From: Escherichia virus TH47
Sequence record: MT446416.1
Reading direction: 5' to 3' (one strand)
Length of the DNA stretch: 64,000 nucleotides
Part shown: positions 11,782 to 58,053 of the stretch, piece after piece
Numbering within the stretch: position 1 is the stretch's first letter
Layout of the letters: each line of letters starts with the position of its first letter
Program-made: the position numbers and the translations under genes
The notes under the pieces: model-generated
Told to the model about the DNA's origin: nothing
What the model saw: only the letters and a program-made list of their open reading frames with translations
Database searches by the model: none

Positions 11782-11856
11782 AGGTATCTCCTTAAAAAAT
11801 GATTACATATTGTACCATGCATTTGTACTCGTGTCAAACGAAAAAAAGCCCATATC

Positions 11857-14024: not shown

Positions 14025-14039
14025 ATATTATTACCTATT

Positions 14040-14650: not shown

Positions 14651-14658
14651 AATTTACC

Positions 14659-16082: not shown

Positions 16083-16091
16083 ATTATTCTC

Positions 16092-17115: not shown

Positions 17116-17425
17116 TAGGCTCCTGTTTAGATTCTTTCATTAGTACTATCATCTTATGTACTAATGGCATAGGAAACTCTAAATCCCATACTAATGATTC
17201 CTGGAAGTATTCCTCTGGTGATAAAGTACTTAAATCTTTAATATCAACGTGCTTGTATATTTTATTTTCGTAATTAACAAATGATATATATAAATCACTA
17301 ACATAAGAATCATAGGTAATTGTGAATGGCTTACCCTTGTAATCCATTACATCTCTACATAGACTACTTTTGATATATGTATGTTCAAATGATTTATATA
17401 CCTTGAGTTTTATATTAGTTTTCAT
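17081..17425 (-). CDS. FamA paralog, function unknown
   Basis: motif PEEYFQESLVWDLE. Confidence 0.6.
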   Translation of the reverse strand: MKTNIKLKVYKSFEHTYIKSSLCRDVMDYKGKPFTITYDSYVSDLYISFVNYENKIYKHVDIKDLSTLSPEEYFQESLVWDLEFPMPLVHKMIVLMKESKQEPNGDYEEHTVEY

Positions 17426-42312: not shown

Positions 42313-42522
42313 TTACTTCCTATATATAAGTATTAACATATAGTAGTACTGATTATGCTGTACATTCTCTTTAATATTATAAGGGTCTATAGCAATCTCG
42401 GTACATCTGTTAAATGCATATCTATTAAATGCCAGTACTATTAGATTGTTAACCCATGCTTGTTCGTTTTCTTTTAGTTTACTTATATAGTACTCTTTAT
42501 ACTCTTTATACTCTTTATGCAT
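42313..42522 (-). CDS. FamC small protein
   Basis: N-term MHKEYKEYKEYYISKL, C-term LILIYRK. Confidence 0.5.
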   Translation of the reverse strand: MHKEYKEYKEYYISKLKENEQAWVNNLIVLAFNRYAFNRCTEIAIDPYNIKENVQHNQYYYMLILIYRK

Positions 42523-42535
42523 AGTATTATCTCTA

Positions 42536-42718
42536 TTAATATGATAGTACTAGTGTTAGTACTGAGCACAATTGTTCTTTATAGTTCTTAGGGTATATAG
42601 AATCTTTTATGCACTCATTGAAGTGCCATAGGTATAATCTTGGGTCGCATTCTTTATATATTTTTACGGGGACGAATGTTAGTTTTCTTATATAGAAGTC
42701 TTTATGTTCTTTATTCAT
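42536..42718 (-). CDS. FamC small protein
   Basis: N-term MNKEHKDFYIRKL. Confidence 0.5.
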   Translation of the reverse strand: MNKEHKDFYIRKLTFVPVKIYKECDPRLYLWHFNECIKDSIYPKNYKEQLCSVLTLVLSY

Positions 42719-42920
42719 ATAGGAATAGTATACCTATGATGCCTGAGTACAGGTTAGTACTGTTATTATTGTCGTTTGCGTTTAAAGTCATTTGAATACA
42801 ATTATTGTAGCATAATCTGCCGAAATATGTATCAGTACTTAAAGGTGGTGTAGTTCTTAGAAACATTTGTTCTGATGTACTGAGGTGTTTGGAGTAGTAT
42901 TCTTTATGTTCTTTATTCAT
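42711..42920 (-). CDS. FamC small protein
   Basis: N-term MNKEHKEYYSKHL. Confidence 0.5.
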   Translation of the reverse strand: MNKEHKEYYSKHLSTSEQMFLRTTPPLSTDTYFGRLCYNNCIQMTLNANDNNNSTNLYSGIIGILFLYE

Positions 42921-42925
42921 ATTAG

Positions 42926-43111
42926 TTAGTGTCTGTATATAAGTAATAGTAAGAATACGTACTGCACCTGTTCATCTTTAGTATTGAGTACTGTACGTAT
43001 TGCGTCATGGAACAAGAATATAGTACTTGGGTCATTAGAATTTAAGGGGTTTACGGGGACGGCGTGTTTGTAGTTCCCTTTAACAAATTGTATATAGTAT
43101 TCTTTATACAT
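42926..43111 (-). CDS. FamC small protein
   Basis: N-term MYKEYYIQFV, C-term LLLLIYRH. Confidence 0.5.
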   Translation of the reverse strand: MYKEYYIQFVKGNYKHAVPVNPLNSNDPSTIFLFHDAIRTVLNTKDEQVQYVFLLLLIYRH

Positions 43112-43112
43112 A

Positions 43113-43292
43113 TTAGTACCTGAATATTAGGGCGAGAATGTAGTACATATAATTTTGGTTCACAGCACAGTCAGTATGGTCAATGAATTGTTGGGTCTTT
43201 TTCTTATCCTTGAAATCTATTGGGTTTAGTAGTATAAGCATTTGGGAGTTTATATCCAGATGGCTTACGTAGAATTCTTTATAGTTATTCAT
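43113..43292 (-). CDS. FamC small protein (59 aa)
   Basis: manual translation MNNYKEFYVSHLDINSQMLILLNPIDF...ILALIFRY; below track cutoff. Confidence 0.45.
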   Translation of the reverse strand: MNNYKEFYVSHLDINSQMLILLNPIDFKDKKKTQQFIDHTDCAVNQNYMYYILALIFRY

Positions 43293-43491
43293 AGAAGAAT
43301 ATTAGTCCTATTACACCTGAGTACATAATATTTTTGTTATTGTATTCTAATGCGTCTAGAGTACTACGTATACAATTATTAAAGCAATCTCTGGCGTGTT
43401 GTGTATCTAAACGTAAAGGTGATACACTCCTTAGAAACATTTGTTCTTCGTTGCTGAGGTATTTGGTGTAGAATTCTTTCTGTTCGTTCAT
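43285..43491 (-). CDS. FamC small protein
   Basis: N-term MNEQKEFYTKYL. Confidence 0.5.
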   Translation of the reverse strand: MNEQKEFYTKYLSNEEQMFLRSVSPLRLDTQHARDCFNNCIRSTLDALEYNNKNIMYSGVIGLIFFYE

Positions 43492-43501
43492 ATTGGCCTC
43501 T

Positions 43502-43690
43502 TTAGTACACGAAAGCTAGGTACAGTACATGATACAGTACTTGATTATAGTTGTAATAATTTATCACGCATTTAGTGCACGTAATGAAGTAGTCTTTTTC
43601 GTAGTTTATTTCTATACCGCGAGGTTCATCTTCTAACAGATTACCTTGAAGGTGCGGTGGTAAATCTTTTATGTAGTATTCTTTATACAT
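43502..43690 (-). CDS. FamC small protein
   Basis: start MYKEYYIKDL at 43688-43690. Confidence 0.5.
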   Translation of the reverse strand: MYKEYYIKDLPPHLQGNLLEDEPRGIEINYEKDYFITCTKCVINYYNYNQVLYHVLYLAFVY

Positions 43691-43691
43691 A

Positions 43692-43882
43692 TTAGTACCT
43701 GAATATAAGTAGGATAGTGTTATATAGTTGGTCATAACTACTACTATTTTCTATACTGCGTTCTATGCAGTTATTGAATCCCAGTACTGCCAAATCGTTA
43801 TCCAGGGGGGGACTTTATATCTGGCGTAGTATTCAAAAATGCTGGGGAGAAATTGTGTGTAGTATTCTTTGTGGTTGTTCAT
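43692..43882 (-). pseudogene. FamC member with frameshift at a C7/G7 homopolymer
   Basis: MNNHKEYYTQFLPSIFEYYARYKVPP... then second frame ...FNNCIERSIENSSSYDQLYNTILLIFRY; shift at run ~43803-43812. Confidence 0.4.
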
Positions 43883-43892
43883 ATTGTTCTCT

Positions 43893-44075
43893 TTAGTACT
43901 TATATATTAGGGCGAGGATGTAGTACAGTTTATATATTCTATCCTCGTACATTAGGGTGTACTTAGTACATTCTTGAAACATTGTTTTTGCGTCATCTTT
44001 TATGCCCAATGCAACGTTTGGTATATGGCTCTGTAGATGCATTGGAAGTTTCTCTATGTAGTATTCTTTATACAT
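43893..44075 (-). CDS. FamC small protein
   Basis: start MYKEYYIEKLPMHLQ at 44073-44075. Confidence 0.5.
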   Translation of the reverse strand: MYKEYYIEKLPMHLQSHIPNVALGIKDDAKTMFQECTKYTLMYEDRIYKLYYILALIYKY

Positions 44076-44739
44076 AGTTTGAAATATACGTAATGAGGTG
44101 ATGAATTTTCTTATCAGTACTGATAAGTTCCTGTACATGTTTTGTTAGTTTGTACGCGTTTTTATAGAGTCCTGGATTATCGATTACAGTACTGTACATG
44201 AATTCTTCTTCTGGTGTTAATTCTTTGTTTTGTAGTTCTTTTAGGAATTGCAGTACTGTAATAGTTTCTTCTGTACGTTGCTGTTGGAAGAAATGCATGT
44301 TATCGTGTACTTTTTCTGAACCAATGCAGTACATATCGCCGATTTGGAATTGTGCTGTACGGATATCATGGGTGCTATTACAATTCCCGAAGAAGTATAC
44401 ATTCCCGAAAGATAGAATTATAGTGCACGGGATATTATCCAGGTGCATATAGATATAGATAGATGCGTCCTCTAGTGCTTTTGTGCTGGTATTAGTACTC
44501 AATACTTTTAAATCAGTATTATAGATATTCATATAATGAACAGCTATATTATTTTTCTTCATGTACAATTCAAGGTTCTTTGATACGTTAACTCCATTTG
44601 TACTGGTTTTTTTACTTTTCTTTAGGTTCTTTAGTACATTAGGGTGATAAGTATATGCATTAGTAATAGATTCAGCCTGGATGGATTGCAAGTACTTAAA
44701 GTGCTGTAGGTATCGTTTACTTTGTGGATTGAGTTTCAT
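44068..44739 (-). CDS. hypothetical protein, paralog of 53657-54307, with FamA-like C-terminal segment
   Basis: 223 aa; shared KKNNIAVHYMN/CNST segments; C-terminal EEEFMYSTVIDNPG. Confidence 0.5.
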   Translation of the reverse strand: MKLNPQSKRYLQHFKYLQSIQAESITNAYTYHPNVLKNLKKSKKTSTNGVNVSKNLELYMKKNNIAVHYMNIYNTDLKVLSTNTSTKALEDASIYIYMHLDNIPCTIILSFGNVYFFGNCNSTHDIRTAQFQIGDMYCIGSEKVHDNMHFFQQQRTEETITVLQFLKELQNKELTPEEEFMYSTVIDNPGLYKNAYKLTKHVQELISTDKKIHHLITYISNYV

Positions 44740-44750
44740 ATTGGTTTCCT

Positions 44751-44930
44751 TTATATAGATGCGAGTGCGAGGATTTCCCTGTAGGGATTATCTTGTGTTA
44801 GTGCGTGATGAATGCAGCTATTGAGATTAATATTTTTAGTACTGTTAGTTGCTAGGTTGTAGTACTTCACGAAGGTGTCGTACATGAAACGGTCTTTAAT
44901 GCTTATGTGTTCTATATAGTATTCTTGCAT
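44751..44930 (-). CDS. FamC small protein
   Basis: start MQEYYIEHISIKDRF at 44928-44930. Confidence 0.45.
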   Translation of the reverse strand: MQEYYIEHISIKDRFMYDTFVKYYNLATNSTKNINLNSCIHHALTQDNPYREILALASI

Positions 44931-44994
44931 ATTATTCCTTAGATTTAGATTAGTTTTAGTACTTCTCTGTACGTGTACTTTTCGTTTTGTGCTT

Positions 44995-45117
44995 CTACTG
45001 TACATGATAGAAAGTATCGTTTTTATCTCTTTTGTTCCCGACTGTGTAGTACCTTTGGAATTGATTATAAATGTATCTATCTTTGTGCTGAAGTTTATAG
45101 ATATAGAATTCTTGCAT
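44995..45117 (-). pseudogene. truncated FamC remnant (40 codons)
   Basis: MQEFYIYKLQHKDRYIYNQFQRYYTVGNKRDKNDTFYHVQ then stop. Confidence 0.3.
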
Positions 45118-45125
45118 AGAGTACC

Positions 45126-45311
45126 TTAGATAGAGATTAGTTTTAGTACTTCAATATATGTGCGGTACTCTGCTTTAATTAAATTTGTACACACTGTAAG
45201 GGAACTTCTTTGTATAAGTTTATTGCCGCTTTTATACGCATTTCTCCACACATAGAGATGAGATCTTTCTGGCATAGATAGTTTATTTGTATAGTACTCA
45301 AATGTATTCAT
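45126..45311 (-). CDS. FamC small protein
   Basis: start MNTFEYYTNKLSMPE at 45309-45311. Confidence 0.45.
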   Translation of the reverse strand: MNTFEYYTNKLSMPERSHLYVWRNAYKSGNKLIQRSSLTVCTNLIKAEYRTYIEVLKLISI

Positions 45312-45321
45312 AGTATTCTCT

Positions 45322-45507
45322 TTACATATCAATAAGTTTCAGTACTGCTCTGTACGTGTACTTAGTTGTTAGTGTTTCTTTTATAGCAGTACAGAAGTAA
45401 TGTTGTTTGTCTCTAGTACTGACGCGTTTGTAGTACCATACATGGGAGTTGTGGCTGTACTTGTCCCTGTCGGATAGTTTTTGGTAATAGTAGCTTTTAT
45501 GATTCAT
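45322..45507 (-). CDS. FamC small protein
   Basis: N-term MNHKSYYYQKL. Confidence 0.45.
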   Translation of the reverse strand: MNHKSYYYQKLSDRDKYSHNSHVWYYKRVSTRDKQHYFCTAIKETLTTKYTYRAVLKLIDM

Positions 45508-45728
45508 TGTAATGTAATTAGCCTTATTATGTTAAAGTACTCGGTCCCTGGTACACCTTGTAGAATATTATCAACTACATTTATTTGGTGCAGGATGAGT
45601 ACATTCGGTGCGGATCTTTTAAGGTTTTTTTAAAGTACTGAATTCTTGTTTAAGGATGTTCTGCACATCTTTAGGGAGAATATCTAAGTAGTACTGATGA
45701 ATGTTCATAGTTTTCATATAGTACTCTT

Positions 45729-45914
45729 TTAGAACTTAAAGATGAGGTTCATGATAGATAAGTACTTAGTTTCAGGAAATTGATGTTCTATTGCATAACG
45801 TGTCGCCAGTCTGAAGTCAAATTTATAAAAGGGAGTATTCATATCCAGAGGTTCATTGGGGAATGAATCTCGGTATTGCTTGTGCAGCTTACTACAGTAG
45901 AATTCTTTATACAT
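45729..45914 (-). CDS. FamC small protein
   Basis: N-term MYKEFYCSKL. Confidence 0.45.
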   Translation of the reverse strand: MYKEFYCSKLHKQYRDSFPNEPLDMNTPFYKFDFRLATRYAIEHQFPETKYLSIMNLIFKF

Positions 45915-45915
45915 A

Positions 45916-46128
45916 TTAGTGCTCGATTAATAGGGTAAGGATGTAATAGTATTGCATACTTTCTACCCCTTGTAAAGCATTTCTTATTTTATTATTCCTG
46001 TACGAGTTCAAGAGTTTAGGACAATGTTTGAGGTTTATATAATTATTTTGTGTATACAGTAGGCTTTCTCGTAGACCTTTTGTTGGTAGTGCATCGATGT
46101 AGTACTGTTCAATGTTCATAGTGTTCAT
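45916..46128 (-). CDS. FamC-like small protein
   Basis: N-term MNTMNIEQYYIDAL. Confidence 0.45.
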   Translation of the reverse strand: MNTMNIEQYYIDALPTKGLRESLLYTQNNYINLKHCPKLLNSYRNNKIRNALQGVESMQYYYILTLLIEH

Positions 46129-46352
46129 AGAGCTACCAGTACTAAGATTTTTGATAATTGTTTATTGCTATCCCCGCAGATGTTGCTGTGTAAAATACTC
46201 GCGGTGAGGGTATCAAGTGCACTGTTCAGCATAAGGTTACATCCAGTACTGTTATGTGTTTTTAGCTCTATCAGCCACGAACTATCCGCGAGAAACTTCG
46301 CGTACTCTAGTTCAGTTAGAGTATTGATGTAGTACTTAAGTGTAGTTGTCAT
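46125..46352 (-). CDS. FamC-like small protein (first gene of the array)
   Basis: N-term MTTTLKYYINTL. Confidence 0.45.
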   Translation of the reverse strand: MTTTLKYYINTLTELEYAKFLADSSWLIELKTHNSTGCNLMLNSALDTLTASILHSNICGDSNKQLSKILVLVAL

Positions 46353-46455
46353 GTACAGTTCTCCTTATATTCCTTCTATAGTACACCAGTACTGAAAGGA
46401 TGTCAAGGGTTTTGTTTATGGGGTAAATATGATATAATGAATAAAGGAGGGAAAT

Positions 46456-47577
46456 ATGTTACCTTTTGTTAGAATGTTTGATTATGGAAATGAAGCACCT
46501 GATCCTAGTTCGGGATTTCGAATAATAAGTACAGGAGACGCATTACTATTAATTACTGAGAGTGGTGATTTGTGGGTGCGTGGTTATAACCGTTATGGCA
46601 AGTTAGGTATAGGTAATAACACCACTACCTATGTACTTGATTGGACGAAGGTTAGAAGTGATGTGAAGTTTGCGTGTGGTAGTGGATTGGTAACAGTTAT
46701 CTTTACTAAGGATAATCGTATATTGTACTGTGGTGACAAATGGTTTGAAACGGGTGGTGTTGGTAGTGCACAGATTTTCACATGGACAGATGTTACGCAC
46801 CAATTTGGGGTAGTAGATTTGAGTACAGTAAGGGATATGAAAATGTCTTATTACACGATTGGATTATTGACTACTAATAATCAATTATACGCTAAGGGAT
46901 TTGATAATAACCTATCATTTGGTGGGGTTACTAATAAGGCGACTGCTGTGTTTATTGCGAATAATGTACAAGAGTTGTATACGAGTTTAGTTAGTACTAT
47001 CTACGTTGATACAAGTGGTATATTACATCGTTGTGGCATGAGTGATAACGGTTCGTTGGGTAATAATGGTAGTTTAACTTCGTATCTAAGTTATTCACAG
47101 CCTGGTATGACGATTAAGGACATTGGAATGATGACTACGAACACTGGGTTATTATATACTGATTCTAGTGCACGCACGAGATATTTTATTGCTGGACAGA
47201 ACTTGAATAAACAGATGGGTAATGCGGCGTCTGCGAGTGCCATTACGAGTACTTACACAGAGCTTTCTGGTAGTGTTGATAAGTTTTCTTCTTTATGGGA
47301 GAATGATGGGATATTGATGACATTTGCTGTGGGTAAGAACACTAATCAGTTATTTTATGCTGGGACGAATACTTTTCATGCGAGTGGTGGTGAATCTTCA
47401 TATGCGGATACATATGAGTTAGTCCCGATGGTGTTTAATGACATACAGGAAGTGTTATGTGCACAGCGTTTATCGGTGGTACATGATTCTACGAAGTGGT
47501 ATTACTGTGGTGATGCTAATTCAATGTATGGTTTACCGGACGTAAGTACTTTTACTGAGTTACCGTTGCCCTTTTAA
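46456..47577 (+). CDS. RCC1-like repeat (beta-propeller) protein, FamD copy 1
   Basis: N-term MLPFVRMFDYGN; repeats GYNRYGKLGIGN etc.; AGGAGGG RBS; TATAAT 46434-46439. Confidence 0.8.
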   Translation: MLPFVRMFDYGNEAPDPSSGFRIISTGDALLLITESGDLWVRGYNRYGKLGIGNNTTTYVLDWTKVRSDVKFACGSGLVTVIFTKDNRILYCGDKWFETGGVGSAQIFTWTDVTHQFGVVDLSTVRDMKMSYYTIGLLTTNNQLYAKGFDNNLSFGGVTNKATAVFIANNVQELYTSLVSTIYVDTSGILHRCGMSDNGSLGNNGSLTSYLSYSQPGMTIKDIGMMTTNTGLLYTDSSARTRYFIAGQNLNKQMGNAASASAITSTYTELSGSVDKFSSLWENDGILMTFAVGKNTNQLFYAGTNTFHASGGESSYADTYELVPMVFNDIQEVLCAQRLSVVHDSTKWYYCGDANSMYGLPDVSTFTELPLPF

Positions 47578-47585
47578 TAATAGGT

Positions 47586-47615
47586 CAGTACTGAAATATG
47601 TACTGGTATTTTTTG
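47586..47615 (+). terminator. intrinsic terminator hairpin + T-run
   Basis: CAGTAC-N8-GTACTG followed by TTTTTTG. Confidence 0.55.
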
Positions 47616-47654
47616 TAAATACTATATAATTATTTTAATTTTGGAGATTTAATC

Positions 47655-48824
47655 ATGTTACCTTTTGTTAGAATGTTTGATTATGGGAATGTAGCACCTG
47701 CACCACCGAAATTTAAAAAAATACTCACCAATAACTACAACGTTGCAGTTTTAACAAGCAGTGGGGATTTATATGTACGTGGGAATAATCAAAACGGTCA
47801 ATTGGGTTTAGGTCACAAAGAAAAAGTTACTACATGGACGTTTAGTACTTCTGGTGTTCAAGATTTTTGGTTTGGTAGTTCAACACTAGTGGTTAAAAAA
47901 ACCGATGATGAAATATGGTACAGTGGACAGTCAACCTCTGTTGGTATGCCAGGGGCATCTGTATCGGGGTGGACTTCTGCCATGCCGACATTCAATACAT
48001 TAACATTACCAATATTAGATATGGCAGTTAGTAATCAGACTACAAGTGTATTACTATCAGACCGAACAATATGGAGTACTGGGGTAGGAAGTAATGGTCA
48101 ATTGGGTAATGGAACTGCGACGAACAACATTTCAGGTAAATTCGTCAAAAGTACTGTTTCGACAGAAGAAGAACAATTACCAGTTAAATTGTTTGCCAGT
48201 AATTTAATGCATGGATATGTTACCGAGAACGGCTGGTTATACTACACTGGGCAACCCAATGCAGTTAGCACTAATGGCAGTGCGGTATATAGTGTTTATA
48301 CTAGTGCTCCTATTAGTCTAAGGAATACCATTAATATCAAGTACTATACAAATAATGGAACTTCGATGGCGATGGCTATTGGTACAGATCCAAATGGTAA
48401 GACCGTACTTGCTAATGGTGGCCCTAGGATATTTGGTGCACAGGCTGACGGAGTAAATGGTCAACTAAGTAATATTAGGCCATTTGCTGTTCAAACCGAA
48501 TCATTGATGCCTCCTGGGGATTTGGTAAGTATTGCTCATAATACTTCATATTATAACCAAGTTATTGCTACAACAGATGGTATATATTGTTGCGGCTACA
48601 ACCAATCTACACACGCTGGTATGTTAGGCATTGGTACATCTACTAACGCATTAGTATATACCAAAGCAATCGTACCTGATGGTTTTGATTATAGTAAATC
48701 GCAAATGGCAGGTGAGTATAACCGTACTTATATAACTGATGGTAATTTTGTATATAGTACAGGGACAGATGTCACATATGGTGGCATTAATAGCTTAGAA
48801 TTTGTAATAGATTCACCATTATAA
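47655..48824 (+). CDS. RCC1-like repeat protein, FamD copy 2
   Basis: N-term MLPFVRMFDYGN; GNNQNGQLGLGH, GSNGQLGNG. Confidence 0.8.
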   Translation: MLPFVRMFDYGNVAPAPPKFKKILTNNYNVAVLTSSGDLYVRGNNQNGQLGLGHKEKVTTWTFSTSGVQDFWFGSSTLVVKKTDDEIWYSGQSTSVGMPGASVSGWTSAMPTFNTLTLPILDMAVSNQTTSVLLSDRTIWSTGVGSNGQLGNGTATNNISGKFVKSTVSTEEEQLPVKLFASNLMHGYVTENGWLYYTGQPNAVSTNGSAVYSVYTSAPISLRNTINIKYYTNNGTSMAMAIGTDPNGKTVLANGGPRIFGAQADGVNGQLSNIRPFAVQTESLMPPGDLVSIAHNTSYYNQVIATTDGIYCCGYNQSTHAGMLGIGTSTNALVYTKAIVPDGFDYSKSQMAGEYNRTYITDGNFVYSTGTDVTYGGINSLEFVIDSPL

Positions 48825-48830
48825 AAAGAA

Positions 48831-48861
48831 AAGCCAGTACTTGATACTGGCTTTTCTTTTT
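48831..48861 (+). terminator. intrinsic terminator (AGCCAGTAC-TTGA-TACTGGCT + T-run)
   Basis: hairpin read directly; same element after copies 3 and 6. Confidence 0.6.
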
Positions 48862-48868
48862 GTATTAA

Positions 48869-48884
48869 ATATAGTATAATGAAT
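48869..48884 (+). promoter_or_regulatory. -10-only promoter-like motif TATAATGAATA (T4-late-like?)
   Basis: TATAAT 48875-48880, ~17 nt upstream of ATG, RBS AAGGAGGG; no good -35. Confidence 0.4.
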
Positions 48885-48897
48885 AAAGGAGGGAATT

Positions 48898-50007
48898 ATG
48901 TTACCTTTTGTTAGAATGTTTGATTACGGGAATATTGCACCTGAAGCTCCAAAGATAAAGAAAGTACTGTGCGGTCGTGATAATTTGTACGTCCTCTATG
49001 GCGATGGCTCACTTTATGGTTGTGGGGATAATGCGTATTTTCAGTTAAACGTTAAAAATGCAGCAACAAGAAATACTTGGATATTAATTTCAGAAGGTGT
49101 TACTGATGTATGGGCTGGGGCGTACAATATTCTTTATCTCAAGGGTGAAGAATTCATAATGCATGGAGTTACCACACAATTAGGCACAGGAGATACTATG
49201 ATTCCGTTGGGTGGTTTGAATGTTACTTCTTCATTTCCACATATATCTAATATTAAAATGATATCAATTGGTGCAGATACAATGCACTACGTTGATGCTA
49301 GTGGTTCGATTGTTTATGGTAGAGGCATGAATGGTAACTATTCACTCGGTGGTGGGTATTCCACGGCTCAGAGTACTTTTGTTTCAGTTATTAATACCGG
49401 AGCTAATACAGTCCTTGATATATTGGGTACACAGAATAACACATTAATATTAACATCAAATGGTGAACTTCTCGGTTGTGGGAGTAGTGGGTATGGTTCA
49501 CTTGGCGTAAGTCCAGGACAGTATACTACACTAGTAAGCAGGTTAACCAGTGTTAAACTGTTTGGTGGTAACAGTACTGGTACTCTTGCTTATTCAGCCA
49601 GCAATATATACAACGCAGGTTGGCAGTATGTTGGTCAACTTGGTAACGGTATTACAACGAACACACTACTATATCCATTTGCATTAAACTCCACTACTAT
49701 TGATAGTAAGATACATAAAATATCAAAATCAAGTACAACTTCACGTGTTAATATGTACGCAACAACCGAAGGAAAGATATATAGTACTGGTGAATTTGGT
49801 AGAAATGGTTCTGGTGGTAGTTTGAGTAGATTCACCAATACACTAACTTTAGATAATTACAACCCAGAAAAATCAGCATTATACACATGTGCAAATTTTA
49901 GTATAGTATTTGATGGTAATAATCAAATTTATGCTTGTGGTTCTTTTTTGTATGTGCCAGGTCCTATTACCACGAACTCATGGTCTGCAATTACAATGCC
50001 GAAATGA
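48898..50007 (+). CDS. RCC1-like repeat protein, FamD copy 3
   Basis: N-term MLPFVRMFDYGN. Confidence 0.8.
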   Translation: MLPFVRMFDYGNIAPEAPKIKKVLCGRDNLYVLYGDGSLYGCGDNAYFQLNVKNAATRNTWILISEGVTDVWAGAYNILYLKGEEFIMHGVTTQLGTGDTMIPLGGLNVTSSFPHISNIKMISIGADTMHYVDASGSIVYGRGMNGNYSLGGGYSTAQSTFVSVINTGANTVLDILGTQNNTLILTSNGELLGCGSSGYGSLGVSPGQYTTLVSRLTSVKLFGGNSTGTLAYSASNIYNAGWQYVGQLGNGITTNTLLYPFALNSTTIDSKIHKISKSSTTSRVNMYATTEGKIYSTGEFGRNGSGGSLSRFTNTLTLDNYNPEKSALYTCANFSIVFDGNNQIYACGSFLYVPGPITTNSWSAITMPK

Positions 50008-50021
50008 TACTATAAAACTAT

Positions 50022-50050
50022 GCCAGTACTTGATACTGGCTTTTCTTTTT
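50022..50050 (+). terminator. intrinsic terminator (GCCAGTAC-TTGA-TACTGGC + T-run)
   Basis: read directly. Confidence 0.6.
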
Positions 50051-50085
50051 GATTAAATATAGTATAAAGAATAAAGGAGGGAATT

Positions 50086-51243
50086 ATGTTACCTTTTGCT
50101 AGAATGGTTAAGTACGGAAATAGAGTTCCAGTACCTGTTGGGATTAAGAAGATAAACTCTGTCGGTACTAGTCAGATGATATTGACGAATACAGGCGACG
50201 TGTATGCATATGGTCAAAACACCAACTGGAGATTTGGTAGTGGTAGTTCTAGTGAGATTAGTGGGGGAGTTCCACAGATGGTAATGCAGGGTGTATCGGA
50301 TATGATATGTCATCCCAGATGTACATTATTAATAATGTCTGATGGACGTTATCTTGCTGCTGGGAACTCTACAGTACTGGGAGGTAGTTCAGGATTGAAT
50401 TATGTAGATGTTAGTTCTAAGTTCGCTACATTAGGAACTATCAAGAAAATTGATTTTACCCGAAGGAACAGTACTTCGTATACAGTATATGCATTAAACA
50501 CTGATGGTGATTTATATGGTATTGGATATGGAAACCGTGGTCAATTGGGGTTAGGTAAAAATAATAGTTTAGGTGCATTTACGAAGATAAACACCAATTG
50601 CAGGAATTTTGTAAGTTGTTCTTATGAGACGATAGTGGCTCTTAAGAATGATAATACTGCGTGGTTCTGTGGAAATTATTCGTTTATTAGTGGTAATACT
50701 GATGTTACTACATTTACTAACCTTGGTGATACTGCAATACTTAATATCTACGGTAATGGTTTAAATGGTGAGTTGTTATACACAAAAAGTGATGGTTTAT
50801 ATTTCCGTGGTTTAGCGTCGAACCGATATGGTTATTCATTCAGTTTAGAACAGCGTGCAATTAATAGCAAGATTACATTGCCGTTTGCTTATGATGTAAG
50901 TACGTTTAAGATTCTCACAGATGAACAGACAACAACCGTCAGTGTGTGGATTTCCAATTCAGACGTTCATTATGGGGTTGGTGCAAATAGCAGTAACACT
51001 AACAGAATGGGATTCACCAACCCAACTATGCCAGGTGCTGGTTCAAACTTTACATTACAGGATTTCAGTTCAGTGCAGGGCACTATTGAGACTGTTGTTA
51101 GTGCAAGTTATTATACAACTCTTATAAACTCTAATGGGAAAGTATTTGGCAGTGGGCCTTTTGATGATGATTCTTTAACTTATTTTCCTGGGAATAATCC
51201 AAAACTGATGAACTACACAGAAATTAAATTGAATATAAATTAG
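50086..51243 (+). CDS. RCC1-like repeat protein, FamD copy 4
   Basis: N-term MLPFARMVKYGN; GYGNRGQLGLGK. Confidence 0.8.
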   Translation: MLPFARMVKYGNRVPVPVGIKKINSVGTSQMILTNTGDVYAYGQNTNWRFGSGSSSEISGGVPQMVMQGVSDMICHPRCTLLIMSDGRYLAAGNSTVLGGSSGLNYVDVSSKFATLGTIKKIDFTRRNSTSYTVYALNTDGDLYGIGYGNRGQLGLGKNNSLGAFTKINTNCRNFVSCSYETIVALKNDNTAWFCGNYSFISGNTDVTTFTNLGDTAILNIYGNGLNGELLYTKSDGLYFRGLASNRYGYSFSLEQRAINSKITLPFAYDVSTFKILTDEQTTTVSVWISNSDVHYGVGANSSNTNRMGFTNPTMPGAGSNFTLQDFSSVQGTIETVVSASYYTTLINSNGKVFGSGPFDDDSLTYFPGNNPKLMNYTEIKLNIN

Positions 51244-51255
51244 GAGAGAATAATT

Positions 51256-52416
51256 ATGTTACCTTTTGCTAGAATGGTTAAGTACGGAAACATTGCACCA
51301 TCCCCTGCTGCCATTAAAAAATTAGTTACCGGATATAACTGGGTTATGGTATTGGGTAGTAATGGTAAATTATATACCCGTGGTGCCAATTCAAGTGGTC
51401 AGTTGGGTTTAGGAGACAATACAGCCAGAACATCATGGACATTAACTGCATCGGATGTCATTGATGTATGGTGTGGTCAGTATGCCACAATGATTCACAA
51501 ATCAGATGGTACATATCAATACACAGGGAAACAATACAATGTGTGTATGGGTACATCATCTGTTAATGCATGGACTTCTATGCAAACTCTTATTAATCAA
51601 GTTAATTCTCAAGGAACAATTACAGAAATATCACTAGGAAATAACTTCATTTCAATACTTATGAGTAATGGGACCATTTGGTGTGGTGGTTATAACACAG
51701 GAGGACAGCTTGGCAATGCTTCTTATTCTAACAGTTTTACTACATTAGTAAAATCAATTATACCAAGTGGTGCGGTTCCGAAAAGGATTATTGCAGGTAT
51801 AAACATGTGTTCATTTATTGCCGAAAGTGGTAGATTATATTACACAGGTGAAGTTAATGGTGATACTAACAGTACTTCAACCGTGAGTTTTTATAATGTA
51901 TTCACATTGTCAGATAGATTACCAGCAACTGTTAGTACTATAGCATTTATAAGTACTGTTAATGATATGGTGCAAGGTATTGCAAGAAACAAAAGCACGT
52001 CAGTTGTTTCAGTGTACACAGGTGGTGATCAATTATATGGACAGGCTGCTACTGGTACTGATACTACAACAAAAATATTGACAACTGTTGTGGCAAATCA
52101 ACCACAAGGAAATATATTAGATATAGGATATGGGTACGGATATTACTCTAACTTTGTTATTACTGACACAGGTGTATACGTTGCTGGTAATAACTCAGCG
52201 ACTTCATACTATGGACAATTAAGTACAGGTTCAACTACTAACGTATTAACTTACACTAAGTCTATTACTCCTGATTTAAATTTCAATGATGTTAAAATCC
52301 AAAGTTGCTATGGTAAAACATATATGACAGATGGAAACAAAATATATTCAAGTGGTACTAACCTAGTATCTGGTGGTACTGCTAGTACTATATTTGTTGA
52401 AGATTCACCAATTTAA
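51256..52416 (+). CDS. RCC1-like repeat protein, FamD copy 5
   Basis: N-term MLPFARMVKYGN; GANSSGQLGLGD, GYNTGGQLGNAS; no terminator between copies 4 and 5. Confidence 0.8.
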   Translation: MLPFARMVKYGNIAPSPAAIKKLVTGYNWVMVLGSNGKLYTRGANSSGQLGLGDNTARTSWTLTASDVIDVWCGQYATMIHKSDGTYQYTGKQYNVCMGTSSVNAWTSMQTLINQVNSQGTITEISLGNNFISILMSNGTIWCGGYNTGGQLGNASYSNSFTTLVKSIIPSGAVPKRIIAGINMCSFIAESGRLYYTGEVNGDTNSTSTVSFYNVFTLSDRLPATVSTIAFISTVNDMVQGIARNKSTSVVSVYTGGDQLYGQAATGTDTTTKILTTVVANQPQGNILDIGYGYGYYSNFVITDTGVYVAGNNSATSYYGQLSTGSTTNVLTYTKSITPDLNFNDVKIQSCYGKTYMTDGNKIYSSGTNLVSGGTASTIFVEDSPI

Positions 52417-52422
52417 AATAAT

Positions 52423-52450
52423 GCCAGTACTCTGTACTGGTATTCTTATT
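52423..52450 (+). terminator. intrinsic terminator hairpin
   Basis: GCCAGTAC-TCT-GTACTGG followed by T-rich tract. Confidence 0.5.
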
Positions 52451-52486
52451 TGTATTAAATATAGTATAATGAATAAAGGAGGAATT

Positions 52487-53623
52487 ATGTTACCTTTTGC
52501 AAGAATGGTTAAGTACGGGAATATAAAAGTAAAGAGTACTATCCAAAAAGTTATCCTTGGTGGTGGTGGTCAATGTGTGGTAACATTACTCAGTGATGGT
52601 AGAGTGTATGGACGTGGTTACAACACTACACATGGGTTAGGTACTGGTACAACAACATTCGTAAGTGATTGGGTATTAATGGGCGATAATATTGTTGATA
52701 TCCATTCAAATGGTGTTCCTGGCACATTCCTTATCACCAAAGAAAATAGAATTTTGTATTCTGGTTGGGCGACACCAATCAATGGTACAACTGCACATTA
52801 TACACGTTTCACTGATTTAACATCAACTGTATTTGCTGCGGTGGATGTTAGTAATATTAAAACAATTACTGGAAATATTAATGCTACAATGGTCCTGTTG
52901 AATGATGGTTCTCTTTATGGTAGTGGTGCAAATACAGGTGTTATTGGTAATGGTAGAAATGTTGCATTATCAACACAAACATATGTAACTAATGATGTGA
53001 GAGAAGTAAAAACATATGGATCCATGACTACTATAACAAAAAATAACAATCAAATACTGGGTAGTGGTCTTTTATACCACGGCGTGAACGGTACAAATTC
53101 AATAATAAACACGTCTTCATATACATTACTGTACACATTACCGAGTTCTGATTGTTTTCAATTTGCATTTGATGAATATACATTTGGATATGTTGACCCT
53201 AGCACTAATACTTCTTATATAAGAGGTATACCAATAAATGGTTCATTGGGTAATGGTGTTACTAATAATACAGCAGTTACAACATGGGTTACTAAAGTTT
53301 GGAATACACCAATTGATAGTTCTATACCTAATAAATCACATACACTTAACCATGTCTCCTTGTTCAATGATGGAAACTTATGGACAACTGGTGCATCTAA
53401 TGTCGGTTATTCCAATGGTACAAATAGCACAACAGCTAATACTTGGACCAGTTCATCTAATTTACCATTCAACACCAATAACATCACAGACTATGCGTTG
53501 GGTAGTAATATTACTGTGGTGGTAATCGACTACAGGTCTATGTACATACTAGCTAACAACTTAATTGCTGGAACTACATCAACCACTTACAAATTTGAGC
53601 CATATAATTCTCCACCAGTTTAA
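52487..53623 (+). CDS. RCC1-like repeat protein, FamD copy 6
   Basis: start MLPFARMVKYGN at 52487 after AAGGAGG; track N-extension from 52373 rejected. Confidence 0.75.
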   Translation: MLPFARMVKYGNIKVKSTIQKVILGGGGQCVVTLLSDGRVYGRGYNTTHGLGTGTTTFVSDWVLMGDNIVDIHSNGVPGTFLITKENRILYSGWATPINGTTAHYTRFTDLTSTVFAAVDVSNIKTITGNINATMVLLNDGSLYGSGANTGVIGNGRNVALSTQTYVTNDVREVKTYGSMTTITKNNNQILGSGLLYHGVNGTNSIINTSSYTLLYTLPSSDCFQFAFDEYTFGYVDPSTNTSYIRGIPINGSLGNGVTNNTAVTTWVTKVWNTPIDSSIPNKSHTLNHVSLFNDGNLWTTGASNVGYSNGTNSTTANTWTSSSNLPFNTNNITDYALGSNITVVVIDYRSMYILANNLIAGTTSTTYKFEPYNSPPV

Positions 53624-53629
53624 TATAAT

Positions 53630-53659
53630 GCCAGTACTTGAGTACTGGCTTTTCTTTTA
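53630..53659. terminator. bidirectional hairpin terminator between convergent genes
   Basis: GCCAGTACTTGAGTACTGGC + TTTTCTTTT. Confidence 0.55.
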
Positions 53660-54307
53660 CATATTATATAATGTGAATGCAGTCACTTTACCAGTTGTTG
53701 TTAGTTCATTATAAAGATACTCCAAGATTCTCGCACACTCTAAGTATATCTCGATATCATCATGAATAAGTGAGTACTGGAATAGCTGTTCTTCAGATAA
53801 TTTGTATTGACTCCCTCTTAATGAATTGAGAATATCTTTCACATCATCAAGTACTGGGTAAAGTACGAAATCTTCATCATATTTTGAAGCAATAAATTCA
53901 AATCCACCACCATCAGTACTAGATATACCAATCAGTACTTTATCAATCAAGTTAATGTTTATATAACGGTTGTGATTTGGGTGAATTGAAATCTCAAACA
54001 TACGAGTACTGTTACAATCAACATCAATATACAAATATACATCATTGAATTTATAAGTTAAGCAACCATACTCAATGTAATCAGAGCAAATAATTGATGA
54101 ATTTTTTCTCGTCTCTGCGTAATGCATATTGATATTCTTTTTACGCATAAGTAATTCGAACTTTGCACTAAACTTACCACCAGTAAGATAATTAGTATTA
54201 GGACGTTTGTAACTGGCAACTGGCCTATGGGATGATGAAAAGTATCTTTTTGTGAATCGTTTCTGTTTAGTGAAATATTCTTGATAGAACTTATTTCTTT
54301 TATTCAT
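53657..54307 (-). CDS. hypothetical protein, paralog of 44068-44739, with FamA C-terminal module
   Basis: motif SEEQLFQYSLIHDDIEIY; start MNKRNKFYQEYF at 54305-54307 after GAGG. Confidence 0.5.
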   Translation of the reverse strand: MNKRNKFYQEYFTKQKRFTKRYFSSSHRPVASYKRPNTNYLTGGKFSAKFELLMRKKNINMHYAETRKNSSIICSDYIEYGCLTYKFNDVYLYIDVDCNSTRMFEISIHPNHNRYININLIDKVLIGISSTDGGGFEFIASKYDEDFVLYPVLDDVKDILNSLRGSQYKLSEEQLFQYSLIHDDIEIYLECARILEYLYNELTTTGKVTAFTLYNM

Positions 54308-54385: not shown

Positions 54386-55510
54386 ATGTTACCTTTCGTA
54401 TTGTTATTTGATTATGGGAACGAAAAACAAGAAAGTTCTTATGATGTTAGTGTATATGGAAACAATAACTACATTTTAAATAAACAAACTGGAAACCTTT
54501 TTGCATCTGGTGCTGCGGCATTTATGGGTGATAACACCGTTAAGTATTATATTACCCAAATCGAATCAAATGTTCATAGCTGTGAGATAGGCTTCCTATC
54601 ATCATGGATAATTAAGAAGGACAAAACTGTTTTCATTTTAGGAAACAAAAGTTCAATTGGTCTAACCGATTCGACCACATCATGGTTTGAAATTACAAAT
54701 TTATTTTCTGCTGTTCCTGAAATATGGGACAACCTATTTGAATGTAAAGTTCAATTGGGATATAACTGCATACGTGTTATGACACCACTAGGTTCAATCT
54801 ATGCGATTGGCACAAACACTTATGGTGCATTGGGTACTGGTACTACATCCTCATCAACTTCGTTCGTTAAAAGTGGTGCTGTGGATGCTGTACGCATGGA
54901 ATCAACTGAACGTTCAGTTTTCTATCAAAACAGTTCTGGAAAATGGTTTGGATGTGGTGATAACACATATGGTATACTAGGTCTAGGAACTACCGCCAGT
55001 CGTGTAAACTCATACACCGCACCAGTATGGACTAATGCAGAAGCTGTTAGCTTCTCTAACCGTGGTATCATATACAGCCTCAATGGTACTCTATACTCAT
55101 GTGGTGACAAAGTTAATGGTCAGCTAGGGGATGGATATACACAAAGCATAGACGCTGCCAGGAGCACACCATACACCATAGGAACCGCATTCCAAATTGG
55201 TAAGGCAATAACATCAGCTACACAAGCATCAGCCAACGTATTCATTGGTAAAGATAATAAGTTCTATGGTACTGGTAGTATTGCTGCTGGTATAAATGGT
55301 AGTGCTAGTGCTACATTAAGTAAAGTTACTGCGTTATCAGCATCACTACCACCTGACATTACATACAATGATATTATAACATTTAATACAGGGACCGTAA
55401 CTTTTATTCAAGCAAAAGGACAACTATATTATGTTGGTAGAAGAACTTACATAGATAATAGTTCAGACGTTACCACACAGTTCAGTTTAATTGGTGGCTT
55501 AGATAATTAA
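54386..55510 (+). CDS. RCC1-like repeat protein, FamD copy 7 (most divergent)
   Basis: N-term MLPFVLLFDYGN; GTNTYGALGTGT, GDNTYGILGLGT, GDKVNGQLGDGY. Confidence 0.8.
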   Translation: MLPFVLLFDYGNEKQESSYDVSVYGNNNYILNKQTGNLFASGAAAFMGDNTVKYYITQIESNVHSCEIGFLSSWIIKKDKTVFILGNKSSIGLTDSTTSWFEITNLFSAVPEIWDNLFECKVQLGYNCIRVMTPLGSIYAIGTNTYGALGTGTTSSSTSFVKSGAVDAVRMESTERSVFYQNSSGKWFGCGDNTYGILGLGTTASRVNSYTAPVWTNAEAVSFSNRGIIYSLNGTLYSCGDKVNGQLGDGYTQSIDAARSTPYTIGTAFQIGKAITSATQASANVFIGKDNKFYGTGSIAAGINGSASATLSKVTALSASLPPDITYNDIITFNTGTVTFIQAKGQLYYVGRRTYIDNSSDVTTQFSLIGGLDN

Positions 55511-55515
55511 AATTA

Positions 55516-55547
55516 ATCCAGTACTATAATAGTACTGGATTTTTTAT
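55516..55547. terminator. bidirectional hairpin terminator
   Basis: ATCCAGTACTATAATAGTACTGGAT + TTTTTT between convergent genes. Confidence 0.6.
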
Positions 55548-55918
55548 TATAACATACGTTTTTTACGAATAGTATTGTGGATATTTTTTAAGTAGTTCAC
55601 ACCTTTACACAACCCATAAAATACACCAGCACATACACCAAATACAGGTATCATACATGCAAACATCGTTATCAATTCCCACATCTCCATGCCATCTTGA
55701 TTCGGTCCAAGGTCAAAGATAACAACCGAAACCAAACCTGTGATACTTAGCATATAATATGCCATGAAGATAAAAAAAGAAACAATACCAACATCAGAGC
55801 GAACTGAATTTAGCATATTATATACTGGGGTTACACAGAAGTAATACAATAACCAAACCAAAGAGCCTAAACTAAACACAATAATAGTAATGATCGAAAA
55901 TATTTCACGATAACTCAT
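55547..55918 (-). CDS. FamE small multi-TM membrane protein
   Basis: 123 aa, several hydrophobic helices; last of seven tandem paralogs. Confidence 0.6.
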   Translation of the reverse strand: MSYREIFSIITIIVFSLGSLVWLLYYFCVTPVYNMLNSVRSDVGIVSFFIFMAYYMLSITGLVSVVIFDLGPNQDGMEMWELITMFACMIPVFGVCAGVFYGLCKGVNYLKNIHNTIRKKRML

Positions 55919-55919
55919 T

Positions 55920-56282
55920 TTAGTTCCTCTTACCTAAACGCTCATGGATTTCGGAAATCTTATTATACATCCACGCCATCAACTCAACGGATGCACAGAG
56001 AATAACCACACACAGTGTTAGTGAACATACCATAATACCAAATGTTATAAAATTCAAACTCGATGTTAATAATGCAACCAGCATTAGAATAAAACCAAAA
56101 TTGAATGCTGTACTCAACACAGTATATGCTGGACTATATCTCCTTTGTATTACATCATATATATTTGATAATGGTCGCTTATGGAAGTACTTCCCAATGC
56201 ACACGAATGCATTCAGTGAGAAGATAAATGTATACGCCATTACCATTAATTGACCAATAAAAGATAATTCAATATTATTCAT
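55920..56282 (-). CDS. FamE small membrane protein
   Basis: 120 aa, hydrophobic. Confidence 0.6.
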   Translation of the reverse strand: MNNIELSFIGQLMVMAYTFIFSLNAFVCIGKYFHKRPLSNIYDVIQRRYSPAYTVLSTAFNFGFILMLVALLTSSLNFITFGIMVCSLTLCVVILCASVELMAWMYNKISEIHERLGKRN

Positions 56283-56283
56283 G

Positions 56284-56655
56284 TTATCCTCGTTTGCGGT
56301 ATTTGATGCTTTGGTGCATTCTCTGAAAATGTGGAACTAATACATATTGTACGGTTTGCCAAATTACCATCAGATTATGGACAGCACCACCGAGTAGACC
56401 AAACATTAGACAGATAATTACCAGTACTGGATCACCATCTACCATACCCCATTTGAATATATGTAAAATCCATACAGTGATAAGTAGTAATAAACTAATC
56501 CAATACGTAGTAAAAAATCCCGCATGTAATTCATAATCATCAGCAATTTCATCGTATACGGTTTCCAAGAAGGATACACAGAAGAACTTGCCAATAATAA
56601 CAATTGTACTAATAAACAACATAGCAGTTAATATAATAAGTGCAATTTCCATCAC
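56284..56655 (-). CDS. FamE small membrane protein
   Basis: 123 aa, hydrophobic. Confidence 0.6.
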   Translation of the reverse strand: MMEIALIILTAMLFISTIVIIGKFFCVSFLETVYDEIADDYELHAGFFTTYWISLLLLITVWILHIFKWGMVDGDPVLVIICLMFGLLGGAVHNLMVIWQTVQYVLVPHFQRMHQSIKYRKRG

Positions 56656-56966
56656 ATCCCTCGTTTACGCTTTTGATTGCGTCTAAATTCGGTTAGCCCA
56701 CGAATAATCGGTGGCATCAGACTACATAAAAAAATAACAGTTGTTGGCAATAACATGAAGTCAATCATTGCTGTATTAACAGGTGGATCACATACCAAAT
56801 AATACAAACACGTAATACTAATTATGGTTGACCCAATAAAAAGAATACAAAATTCTTTTATCTGTTTTTCAACATAATCAAACATCTTCAATACAAATAA
56901 AAATCCAACCCAACACATAATAAAATAGAATGAATACAACGTGTAAATCAATGTTACGATATCCAT
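56652..56966 (-). CDS. FamE small membrane protein
   Basis: 104 aa; ATGA overlap. Confidence 0.6.
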   Translation of the reverse strand: MDIVTLIYTLYSFYFIMCWVGFLFVLKMFDYVEKQIKEFCILFIGSTIISITCLYYLVCDPPVNTAMIDFMLLPTTVIFLCSLMPPIIRGLTEFRRNQKRKRGM

Positions 56967-57304
56967 TAGTACCTCGCATCAGGAACTTTAGAACGCAATT
57001 TATGAACGGCTGGGATCAACAACAAACTTACATATGCAATAGTTGAACCCCAATAGAATACTAATATAATTGGTTCACCATTAGAACGTAAACCTCTACT
57101 AATCATTGAGTAGTGAATAATAGGCATAAACATCGCCATAAAAAACCATGCGTGTAATTTTAATTGCAGCATGTTATCAGAGATGAATACTGAAATTGGT
57201 CGTTTAAAGAACCACATCAGAAAGTAGAACCCAGCACTAACAATATAGTACATAGTACTAACTTTCATATACCACGGCATTAAGTGTAAAAAATATTCCA
57301 TCAT
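56966..57304 (-). CDS. FamE small membrane protein
   Basis: 112 aa. Confidence 0.6.
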   Translation of the reverse strand: MMEYFLHLMPWYMKVSTMYYIVSAGFYFLMWFFKRPISVFISDNMLQLKLHAWFFMAMFMPIIHYSMISRGLRSNGEPIILVFYWGSTIAYVSLLLIPAVHKLRSKVPDARY

Positions 57305-57648
57305 TCCTCCGGTATCTTGTTTCGAAGTTCAATCATAACACAACAAAGTTTAATGAACAAGTAAAAAACTACACATATCATACCTATGGTTCCATAAACG
57401 ACTGAAAAAGCTGGTAGTGCTTTTCCGGCGAGAACAGCCACAACACATGCTATAAATGTTGATGCAAACAATGATTGATTAATGAAAGAATTCATAAAAT
57501 CTTCACCATTACGCTTATAGAATTGTCGTTTAAAATACCATCCTAGAAACATAACTACCCAAAATGTTACATAACCTGTTAGAATAATCCCTGCAATTGA
57601 ATGTGCAACAGAACTACTCTTTAAAAACTCAAGATAAGATTCAAACAT
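57301..57648 (-). CDS. FamE small membrane protein
   Basis: 115 aa; ATGA overlap. Confidence 0.6.
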   Translation of the reverse strand: MFESYLEFLKSSSVAHSIAGIILTGYVTFWVVMFLGWYFKRQFYKRNGEDFMNSFINQSLFASTFIACVVAVLAGKALPAFSVVYGTIGMICVVFYLFIKLCCVMIELRNKIPEE

Positions 57649-57986
57649 TAGAAGTCCCCACGAATTTTTGCTCTACCATTAATGATGAGATTAAACAAGT
57701 ATATCAGCACCCAAATTAGTAATCCAAGGAATACAATATATTGTGATATTGAGTTCAACTGTGGATTAGCACAATAAATTAAGTGTGCGATAAGACCAAC
57801 AATTGCAAACATACCTTGGATAATAGTGAAAAGAAGTAGTGAAATGTTTCCATCAGGATACAGTTTGAAAACGATTTTCTTTTTAAAATACCATAGTACT
57901 ACAACTAGTGCATGATAAAAGAAAAAACCAAACAGATAAATCAAAGTAATACTAAGCATTGTATCTGAATTAAAAAACTCAAGCAT
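57648..57986 (-). CDS. FamE small membrane protein
   Basis: 112 aa; first of seven. Confidence 0.6.
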   Translation of the reverse strand: MLEFFNSDTMLSITLIYLFGFFFYHALVVVLWYFKKKIVFKLYPDGNISLLLFTIIQGMFAIVGLIAHLIYCANPQLNSISQYIVFLGLLIWVLIYLFNLIINGRAKIRGDF

Positions 57987-58053
57987 ATCGTATCTCCGGT
58001 GGTGAATATTAAGTTATAGTACTACACTATGGTAGTACTGTCAATACATGTAA

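Follow-up and report, generated by a model that had tools for sequence, protein, structure and literature searches.

The assembly chaperones of phage tail fibres and other virion proteins are small proteins encoded beside variable virion-protein genes. Their genes are usually co-directional with those of their clients and are co-expressed with them late. A different setting is found in the early arrays of Rak2-like jumbo phages such as CBB and GAP32, where short hypothetical genes with sigma-70-like promoters lie near the terminal repeat and are presumed to serve host takeover (PMC5259590). Two genes whose setting recalls both of these systems, here called A and B, occur in a 64,000-nucleotide stretch of Escherichia virus TH47 (MT446416.1), the whole of which is referred to as the window. 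Both lie on the minus strand, near an array of seven plus-strand RCC1-like genes.

The window region is 84-96% identical at the nucleotide level to Asteriusvirus genomes, the 121Q/PBECO4/phAPEC6-like jumbo phages of E. coli and Salmonella (~350 kb), and a protein identical to A was found on an NCBI contig of 352,450 bp. Asteriusviruses spend a large share of their ~600 genes on unexplained paralog arrays, and the window is a mosaic of them, with ~30 genes of 100-212 aa, ~15 of ~60 aa, seven RCC1-like genes and seven membrane-protein genes (Table 1). A and B are described below as members of a small subfamily within a large, motif-defined superfamily. This subfamily offers a concrete entry both to the role of the superfamily and to the question of why these phages carry 7-14 RCC1-like genes.

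Identity and paralogy of A and B

A and B are real genes, as initially annotated. Single orthologs of each are present in 34-35 Asteriusvirus genomes, with 35 phage genomes for A, and each has its own PHROG and Shine-Dalgarno sequence. The hidden Markov model (HMM) of phrog_29152 matches A over its full length (398 bits over residues 1-223, E 2e-119), and that of phrog_34359 matches B at 191 bits (E 4e-56) over residues 23-237 of the longer open reading frame (ORF) that begins with GTG. An AGGAA ribosome-binding site (RBS) precedes the ATG of A, and there is an 8-nt overlap between the stop of A and the ATG of the small gene that follows; for B, GAGG lies 5 nt upstream of the ATG. The longer GTG start for B (ORF to 54370) was rejected because the PHROG match begins at the ATG and the ATG has an RBS, leaving the originally proposed start in place. 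In the GenBank record of vB_Ec-M-J (OQ718158.1), a 96% identical ortholog of B (L001:11565-12215) is unannotated and falls in a 760-bp gap between two RCC1-like genes.

The two proteins are genuine but distant paralogs, as judged from their collinear match, the profile scores and two aligned internal segments. BLASTP finds the two sequences 22% identical (E 5e-4). When their ortholog alignments are compared by hhalign, 140 columns align collinearly with a probability of 74% (E 2.8e-5). The HMM of the A family scores 17.0 bits against window B (E 1.9e-7), a value reached by 0 of 2000 shuffles, whose maximum was 8.1. The match runs collinearly from end to end, and the shared segments from which paralogy had been proposed are both present and aligned, namely KKNNIAVHYM in A with RKKNINMHYA in B, and CNST in both. 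Additionally, when 1.84 billion representative proteins were searched exhaustively by profile, only 13 A/B members came back, and several of these bridge A and B. The subfamily is recognised by an N-terminal MK..K.Y...F, a K-rich linker, KKNNI..HY, a conserved Cys and an FQ/MYS motif, all of which A and B possess. Against the AB5 profile, complete A/B genes score at least 24 bits and other window ORFs at most 18 bits.

In PHROGs, phrog_29152 and phrog_34359 stand apart from each other, both without an assigned function; the present comparison joins them as paralogs and links them to further PHROGs. Searches of Pfam, NCBIfam and PDB sequences with A, B, distant A/B members and ten members of the larger superfamily gave nothing above noise, and a related-locus search of IMG/VR with P0036 and P0033 gave no relatives. 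No description of either family was found in a literature search.

The FQxS superfamily

Toward their C-termini, A and B share a motif composed of acidic residues followed by F-Q/M-x-S-[LT]-[IVL], in the form TPEEEFMYSTVIDNP in A and LSEEQLFQYSLIHDD in B. It is situated 44 residues from the C-terminus in A (EEEFMYSTV) and 41 residues in B (EEQLFQYSLI). The A/B profile picked up two other window ORFs by way of LSEEExFQYSLxxD, and the motif acidic-F-Q-x-S-[LT]-[IVL]-x-[DN] was found in 30 minus-strand ORFs at 120-17425, 40-72 residues from the C-terminus. With a strict regular expression, [DE][DE]x0-3 F[QM]xS[LT][IVL] at 34-66 residues from the C-terminus, 16 of the 143 minus-strand ORFs match, A and B among them, compared with 0.003 expected from shuffles.

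A profile of this C-terminal module, built solely from the 30 ORFs, matches B at 22.9 bits over residues 168-201 (0 of 2000 shuffles reach this score) and most of the distant A/B members at 15-22 bits. Taken by itself, window A matches the module weakly, at 4.9 bits, which 16 of 2000 shuffles reach. By hhalign, the module and the A/B alignment match at 88% (E 3e-6), the aligned stretch being exactly the motif of A, and the A/B alignment matches a superfamily subgroup of 100-130 aa at 93.6% (E 2e-7). The profile link between A/B and the superfamily is as strong as that among the superfamily's own subgroups (79%).

The 30 FQxS members at 120-17425 have no Pfam match and are spread over many mutually cross-matching PHROGs of unknown function. 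These include phrog_12674, 9317, 13866, 15629, 19795, 28680, 30978 and others, in which acidic-FQxS-[LT][IVL]xD stands ~40 residues from the C-terminus and is followed by helices, as it is in A/B. On profile and motif evidence, A, B and at least ten separate PHROGs of unknown function belong to one superfamily with a sharp signature motif and ~32 members in the window. It was seen here only in Asteriusvirus-like jumbo phages.

The initial annotation gave both proteins a C-terminus of the type of a family named FamA, which is probably the FQxS superfamily. With that superfamily as FamA the assignment is sound, given the B score and hhalign probabilities of 88-94%. It does not extend to the 60-aa genes around A, since phrog_11711, tried as the source of FamA, scored ~0 bits by hmmsearch and 0.1% by hhalign and was rejected. 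Motif instances such as EEGYFQGS and EEYYFQQS (3931-4377, minus strand, and other FQxS genes) resemble the tobacco etch virus protease-type site ExxYxQ followed by G or S, a likeness that is probably coincidental.

Architecture of the A and B proteins

A and B differ from other FQxS proteins by an additional basic N-terminal arm of ~60 residues, and by their place beside the RCC1-like array, outside the main cluster. The isoelectric point (pI) of the N-terminal 60-65 aa is ~10 in A, against 5.7-6.0 for the rest; in B it is 10.5-10.7 (16 Lys and Arg in the first 65 residues), against ~4.5. Among A/B members with an intact N-terminus, the first 60 residues have a pI of 10-11 and the remainder one of 4.5-6.5. 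As a whole, the superfamily is acidic, with a median pI of 4.8, whereas A (8.75) and B (8.19) are not.

An AlphaFold2 model of A from a diverse 13-sequence alignment reached a predicted local distance difference test score (pLDDT) of 72.8 and a predicted template-modelling score of 0.65. It places a helix at residues 5-22, a linker with pLDDT below 50 at 20-48, an alpha/beta domain at 54-151 and four C-terminal helices at 157-222, the second of which carries the motif. For B, a model from a 19-sequence A and B alignment was unusable (pLDDT 38.9). The predicted architecture would consist of a basic arm of ~60 residues, made of a helix and a Lys/Arg-rich flexible linker, an acidic alpha/beta domain, and a helical C-terminal module that opens with the acidic-FQxS motif. 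Foldseek searches of the A model against BFVD and PDB gave no informative matches; RWD and UBC-like alpha+beta domains (the RWD domains of Knl1, Csm1, GCN2 and RNF25, and the bacterial E2 BilB) serve as candidate fold comparisons only.

The RCC1-like locus and its history

The operon that holds A in the window is otherwise made up of 60-aa genes, six to seven upstream of A and eight downstream. A was previously placed just before RCC1-like copy 1, but these upstream genes and 1.7 kb intervene. B does lie between copies 6 and 7 as described, and the divergent transcription ascribed to it holds for copy 7, across a gap of 78 nt, but not for copy 6, with which it is convergent. The seven RCC1-like proteins are 24-37% identical in pairwise comparison and have only their 12 N-terminal residues in common, with the consensus MLPF[VA]RM[FV][DK]YGN (MLPFVLLFDYGN in copy 7). 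The conservation of this N-terminus on such diverged bodies suggests, from sequence, a shared anchoring or targeting peptide of virion-associated proteins. For copy 6, a GTG start at 52373 was rejected, as the conserved MLPFARMVKYGN start, the RBS and the promoter element put its start at 52487.

The link between the FQxS module and the RCC1-like locus, first proposed from the window, is real and evolutionarily conserved. A/B genes, in one to four tandem copies, adjoin RCC1-like arrays in all informative lineages but one, and are at most two genes away from RCC1-like genes in 121Q, JNE01, EJP2, Hallingskeid and the metagenome contigs L006, L012/13 and L016. In 121Q, JNE01 and EJP2 they are present on both sides of the array. 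EJP2 has three tandem A/B genes after its membrane array, on one flank of 14 RCC1-like genes, and one on the other flank. The Erwinia phage Hallingskeid has two, in tandem and divergent from an eight-gene RCC1 array. Among the metagenome contigs, L006 has three A/B genes beside four RCC1 genes, L012/13 three that are convergent with an RCC1 gene, and L016 two that lie two genes from an RCC1 gene, while the 2.2 kb of L015 are filled by four tandem A/B genes. The exception is L017, in which a Laminin_G_3 gene takes the place where an RCC1-like gene would be. Tandem sets of 2-4 A/B genes were found in L006, L007, L012/13, L015, L016/17 and EJP2.

The interruption of the array by B is a derived, clade-specific state. 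In 121Q, phAPEC6 and JNE01, the region closes with B, which comes immediately after the membrane-protein array; no RCC1 gene is found beyond it, and copy 7 is absent from this position. Copy 7 occurs only alongside the window-type B allele (at least 71% identical), other Asteriusviruses having a 45%-identical allele, and it is this restriction to one sub-clade that identifies the interruption as derived. The 60-aa family was not found in EJP2, Hallingskeid or the metagenome contigs L006-L008 and L012-L018, and its genes around A are therefore a later insertion. The simplest history would be a tandem A/B array on the early strand, inside which an oppositely oriented RCC1 array came to lie.

Promoters and virion evidence

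The exact sequence TTGACA-N16-18-TACTAT occurs four times, against 0.15 expected, and two of these sites immediately precede the A operon and the membrane-protein array, respectively. More broadly, 28 of 29 TTGAC[AT]-N16-18-TAnnnT sites are on the minus strand. In the ancestral arrangement, B would have been part of the operon behind the promoter of the membrane array. The RCC1-like genes have a different, late-like element, each being preceded by its own CCAGTACT..AGTACTGG hairpin and then [GT]TAAATA..TATAAT..AAAGGAGG. This element resembles the ATAAATA/TATAAATA late motif of related phages, and in CBB sigma-70-like promoters mark the presumed early region (PMC5259590).

Mass spectrometry of phAPEC6 virions listed 62 proteins, eight of them RCC1-like (PMC7247149), and the RCC1-like gp001 of GAP32 is likewise a virion protein (PMC5259590). 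The orthologs of A and B, gp544c and gp011c, are absent from the phAPEC6 list of 62 (PMC7247149).

Function of the A/B subfamily

The preferred explanation, held at a tentative probability of about 45%, is that A and B are early, non-structural FQxS accessory proteins with a basic tethering arm, and that history accounts at least in part for their position on either side of the RCC1 island. They would be two diverged survivors of a small tandem family, the A/B subfamily, within the large FQxS superfamily. Judged by promoter consensus, they would be expressed early, from closely spaced operons headed by sigma-70-consensus promoters on the "early" strand. Their conserved core would bind a protein partner, and through the basic arm they would be anchored to a polyanion, which could be nucleic acid or membrane. 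The inverted, late and virion-associated RCC1-like array would sit inside the former tandem A/B array, and the bracketing would for this reason reflect shared history, perhaps with a local function, rather than the role of a co-expressed chaperone. Homology, architecture, synteny and the promoter-like motifs are demonstrated, whereas the timing of expression, the binding roles and the splitting of the array are inferred.

Several observations weigh against this explanation. In the clade of the window, B is separated from the promoter of the membrane array by copy 7 and a terminator, and a search of the 78-nt gap upstream of B gave no convincing promoter. No Asteriusvirus transcriptome was found in the literature, and "early" here refers to promoter consensus alone. 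A/B and RCC1-like genes stay adjacent even where protein identity has fallen to 13-30% and the other neighbours differ, which exceeds simple inertia and favours a functional link. Additionally, B splits sharply by sub-clade (45% vs at least 90% identity), as do the RCC1-like genes, which are known to diverge sharply between sub-clades (PMC13070987), and co-evolution is possible.

Owing to this persistence of the neighbourhood, a local function of A and B at the RCC1 locus, whether regulatory or in handling, is plausible. It is a more doubtful proposition that the membrane array, A/B genes, inverted RCC1-like array and further A/B genes constitute a conserved functional module, in which the early A/B proteins have the hypervariable, virion-associated RCC1-like proteins as their specific targets of control or handling. 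Such a module, if real, would open a first way into the function both of the FQxS superfamily, with its ~30 members, and of the RCC1-like arrays of phages. For now the value is modest, since neither a function nor a mechanism is established.

The initial annotation suggested that A and B may be partners or chaperones of the RCC1-like proteins; a dedicated role of this kind, or one in assembly, is unlikely. They might, for example, bind the shared MLPF[VA]RM..YGN peptide and aid folding or entry into the virion, and the 12 N-terminal residues, as the sole part common to the RCC1 copies, would suit one binding partner. Proximity in the seven lineages and contig sets named above is consistent with this role, as is the constant company of the window-type B allele and copy 7, although physical linkage explains the latter equally well. 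A co-expressed assembly factor is disfavoured, however, by the opposite strand of A and B, by their different promoter class and by the absence of their orthologs from the phAPEC6 virion list. Moreover, 2-4 A/B genes would have to be set against 7-14 RCC1 genes, and L017 has its Laminin_G_3 gene in the RCC1-like position.

It is improbable that A and B are early-made local regulators of the RCC1 island, which bind DNA or RNA through the basic arm and switch the late RCC1 genes, arranged divergently or convergently to them, on or off. The arm, with its pI of 10-11, would be suited to this, every RCC1 gene offers a recognisable target in its common upstream element and hairpin, and there are divergent pairs with short intergenic regions, as between B and copy 7 (78 nt) and between A/B and the first RCC1 gene in EJP2, Hallingskeid and L006. 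Nevertheless, Pfam, NCBIfam and PDB sequence searches detected no known DNA-binding domain, no repeated operator was found besides the promoter-like motifs, and in the window A is separated from the array by the six to seven unrelated small genes.

A still fainter prospect is that the B-type members act with the small membrane proteins encoded upstream, the basic arm binding the membrane or those proteins. B-type genes are indeed the last of the membrane-protein operon in 121Q, JNE01, EJP2 and L012/13, but A-type members have no membrane-protein neighbours, and in the clade of the window an RCC1 gene and a terminator stand between B and the array. Finally, chance or composition in AT-rich phage genes for Lys/Asn-rich proteins, with A and B unrelated, might be read into the 22% identity, the hhalign probability of only 74% and the 4.9 bits of window A (equalled by 16 of 2000 shuffles), but is dismissed in view of the 17-bit cross-family profile match with 0 of 2000 shuffles, the full-length collinearity and bridging members, and a motif enriched at 16 vs 0.003 at a fixed distance from the C-terminus.

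Other features of the window

The coordinates of A, B and the surrounding features are collected in Table 1. The membrane-protein paralogs are of 104-123 aa and appear to be multi-pass; the first of them matches phrog_27618.

Table 1. Features of the window, with positions counted from its first letter
Feature	Position	Strand	Basis or remark
Gene A, 223 aa, A/B subfamily of FQxS superfamily, phrog_29152	44068..44739	-	ORF, PHROG, orthologs
Gene B, 216 aa, distant paralog of A, phrog_34359	53657..54307	-	ORF, PHROG, orthologs
Basic N-terminal arm of A	44590..44739	-	helix MKLNxxSKxYLxHFKYL, then Lys-rich low-confidence linker
Basic N-terminal arm of B	54158..54307	-	pI
FQxS-type motif of A, KELTPEEEFMYSTVIDNPGLYK, residues 172-193	44161..44226	-	hhalign-aligned stretch and regular expression
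FQxS-type motif of B, ...KLSEEQLFQYSLIHDD..., residues 168-189	53741..53806	-	superfamily profile match
FQxS-superfamily region	120..17425	-	30 further genes, 100-212 aa, mostly acidic (median pI 4.8)
60-aa family (phrog_11711), eight genes downstream of A, same operon	42313..44138	-	ORFs and PHROG match
60-aa family, six to seven genes between A and RCC1-like copy 1	44751..46352	-	ORFs
RCC1-like copies 1-6	46456-47577, 47655-48824, 48898-50007, 50086-51243, 51256-52416, 52487-53623	+	Pfam WD40_RLD/RCC1, phrog_4219
RCC1-like copy 7	54386..55510	+	divergent from B
Bidirectional terminator-like hairpin GCCAGTACT..AGTACTGGC between RCC1-like copy 6 and B	53630..53649	.	predicted hairpin
Seven small membrane-protein paralogs	55547..57986	-	tandem array
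Sigma-70-consensus promoter TTGACA-N17-TACTAT heading the small-gene and A operon	46378..46406	-	motif match
Sigma-70-consensus promoter TTGACA-N17-TACTAT heading the membrane-protein array	58016..58044	-	motif match
[FL]xLGTxxQ family genes	3033-3420, 15330-15787, 17415-17880	-	shared motif
TTGACTTCGGTCAGCCCTTTTTGCTATAAT units	58853-58882, 60300-60329, 61688-61717, 63273-63302; variants 24922, 26026, 28750, 33007	-	sequence repeat

Terminator-like hairpins with the common CCAGTACT...AGTACTGG core are found at 47584-47607, 50022-50040, 52420-52444, 53630-53649, 55515-55541 and 41415-41448. The same word, AGTACT, recurs in the spacers or -10 flanks of many of the sigma-70-like promoters, as in TTGACAGTACT...AGTACTAT, and the minus strand carries at least eight copies of a nearly identical promoter-like unit of 30 nt, TTGACTTCGGTCAGCCCTTTTTGCTATAAT. 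A second family of small proteins, with the motif [FL]xLGTxxQ[ED]xxVxx[YF]Lxx (e.g. FYLGTSVQEEMVQKFLNHL), is interspersed with the FQxS genes, and an array of 70-90-aa genes up to ~23400 probably belongs to it as well. From ~40250 to 42310, ~2 kb are without a convincing minus-strand gene. This stretch holds a perfect TTGACA-16-TATAAT promoter at 41605-41578 and two further 10/12 matches, has an equivalent unannotated gap in 121Q (L003:25195-27162), and may serve regulation or mark the boundary of the terminal repeat.

Comparison with known systems

PHROGs already lists the genes themselves as hypothetical, and jumbo phages are known to expand paralogs in their early regions. What is new is the unification of A, B and many PHROGs in one motif-defined superfamily, the definition of the A/B subfamily, and its conserved association with RCC1-like arrays. 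Unlike the known assembly chaperones, to which they have no homology, A and B are situated on the opposite strand behind early-type promoters. With the Rak2-like early arrays their setting shares the sigma-70-like promoters, the short hypothetical genes, the place near the terminal repeat and the presumed part in host takeover. No homology to characterised takeover proteins was found, and a conserved tie to an RCC1-like array is peculiar to A and B.

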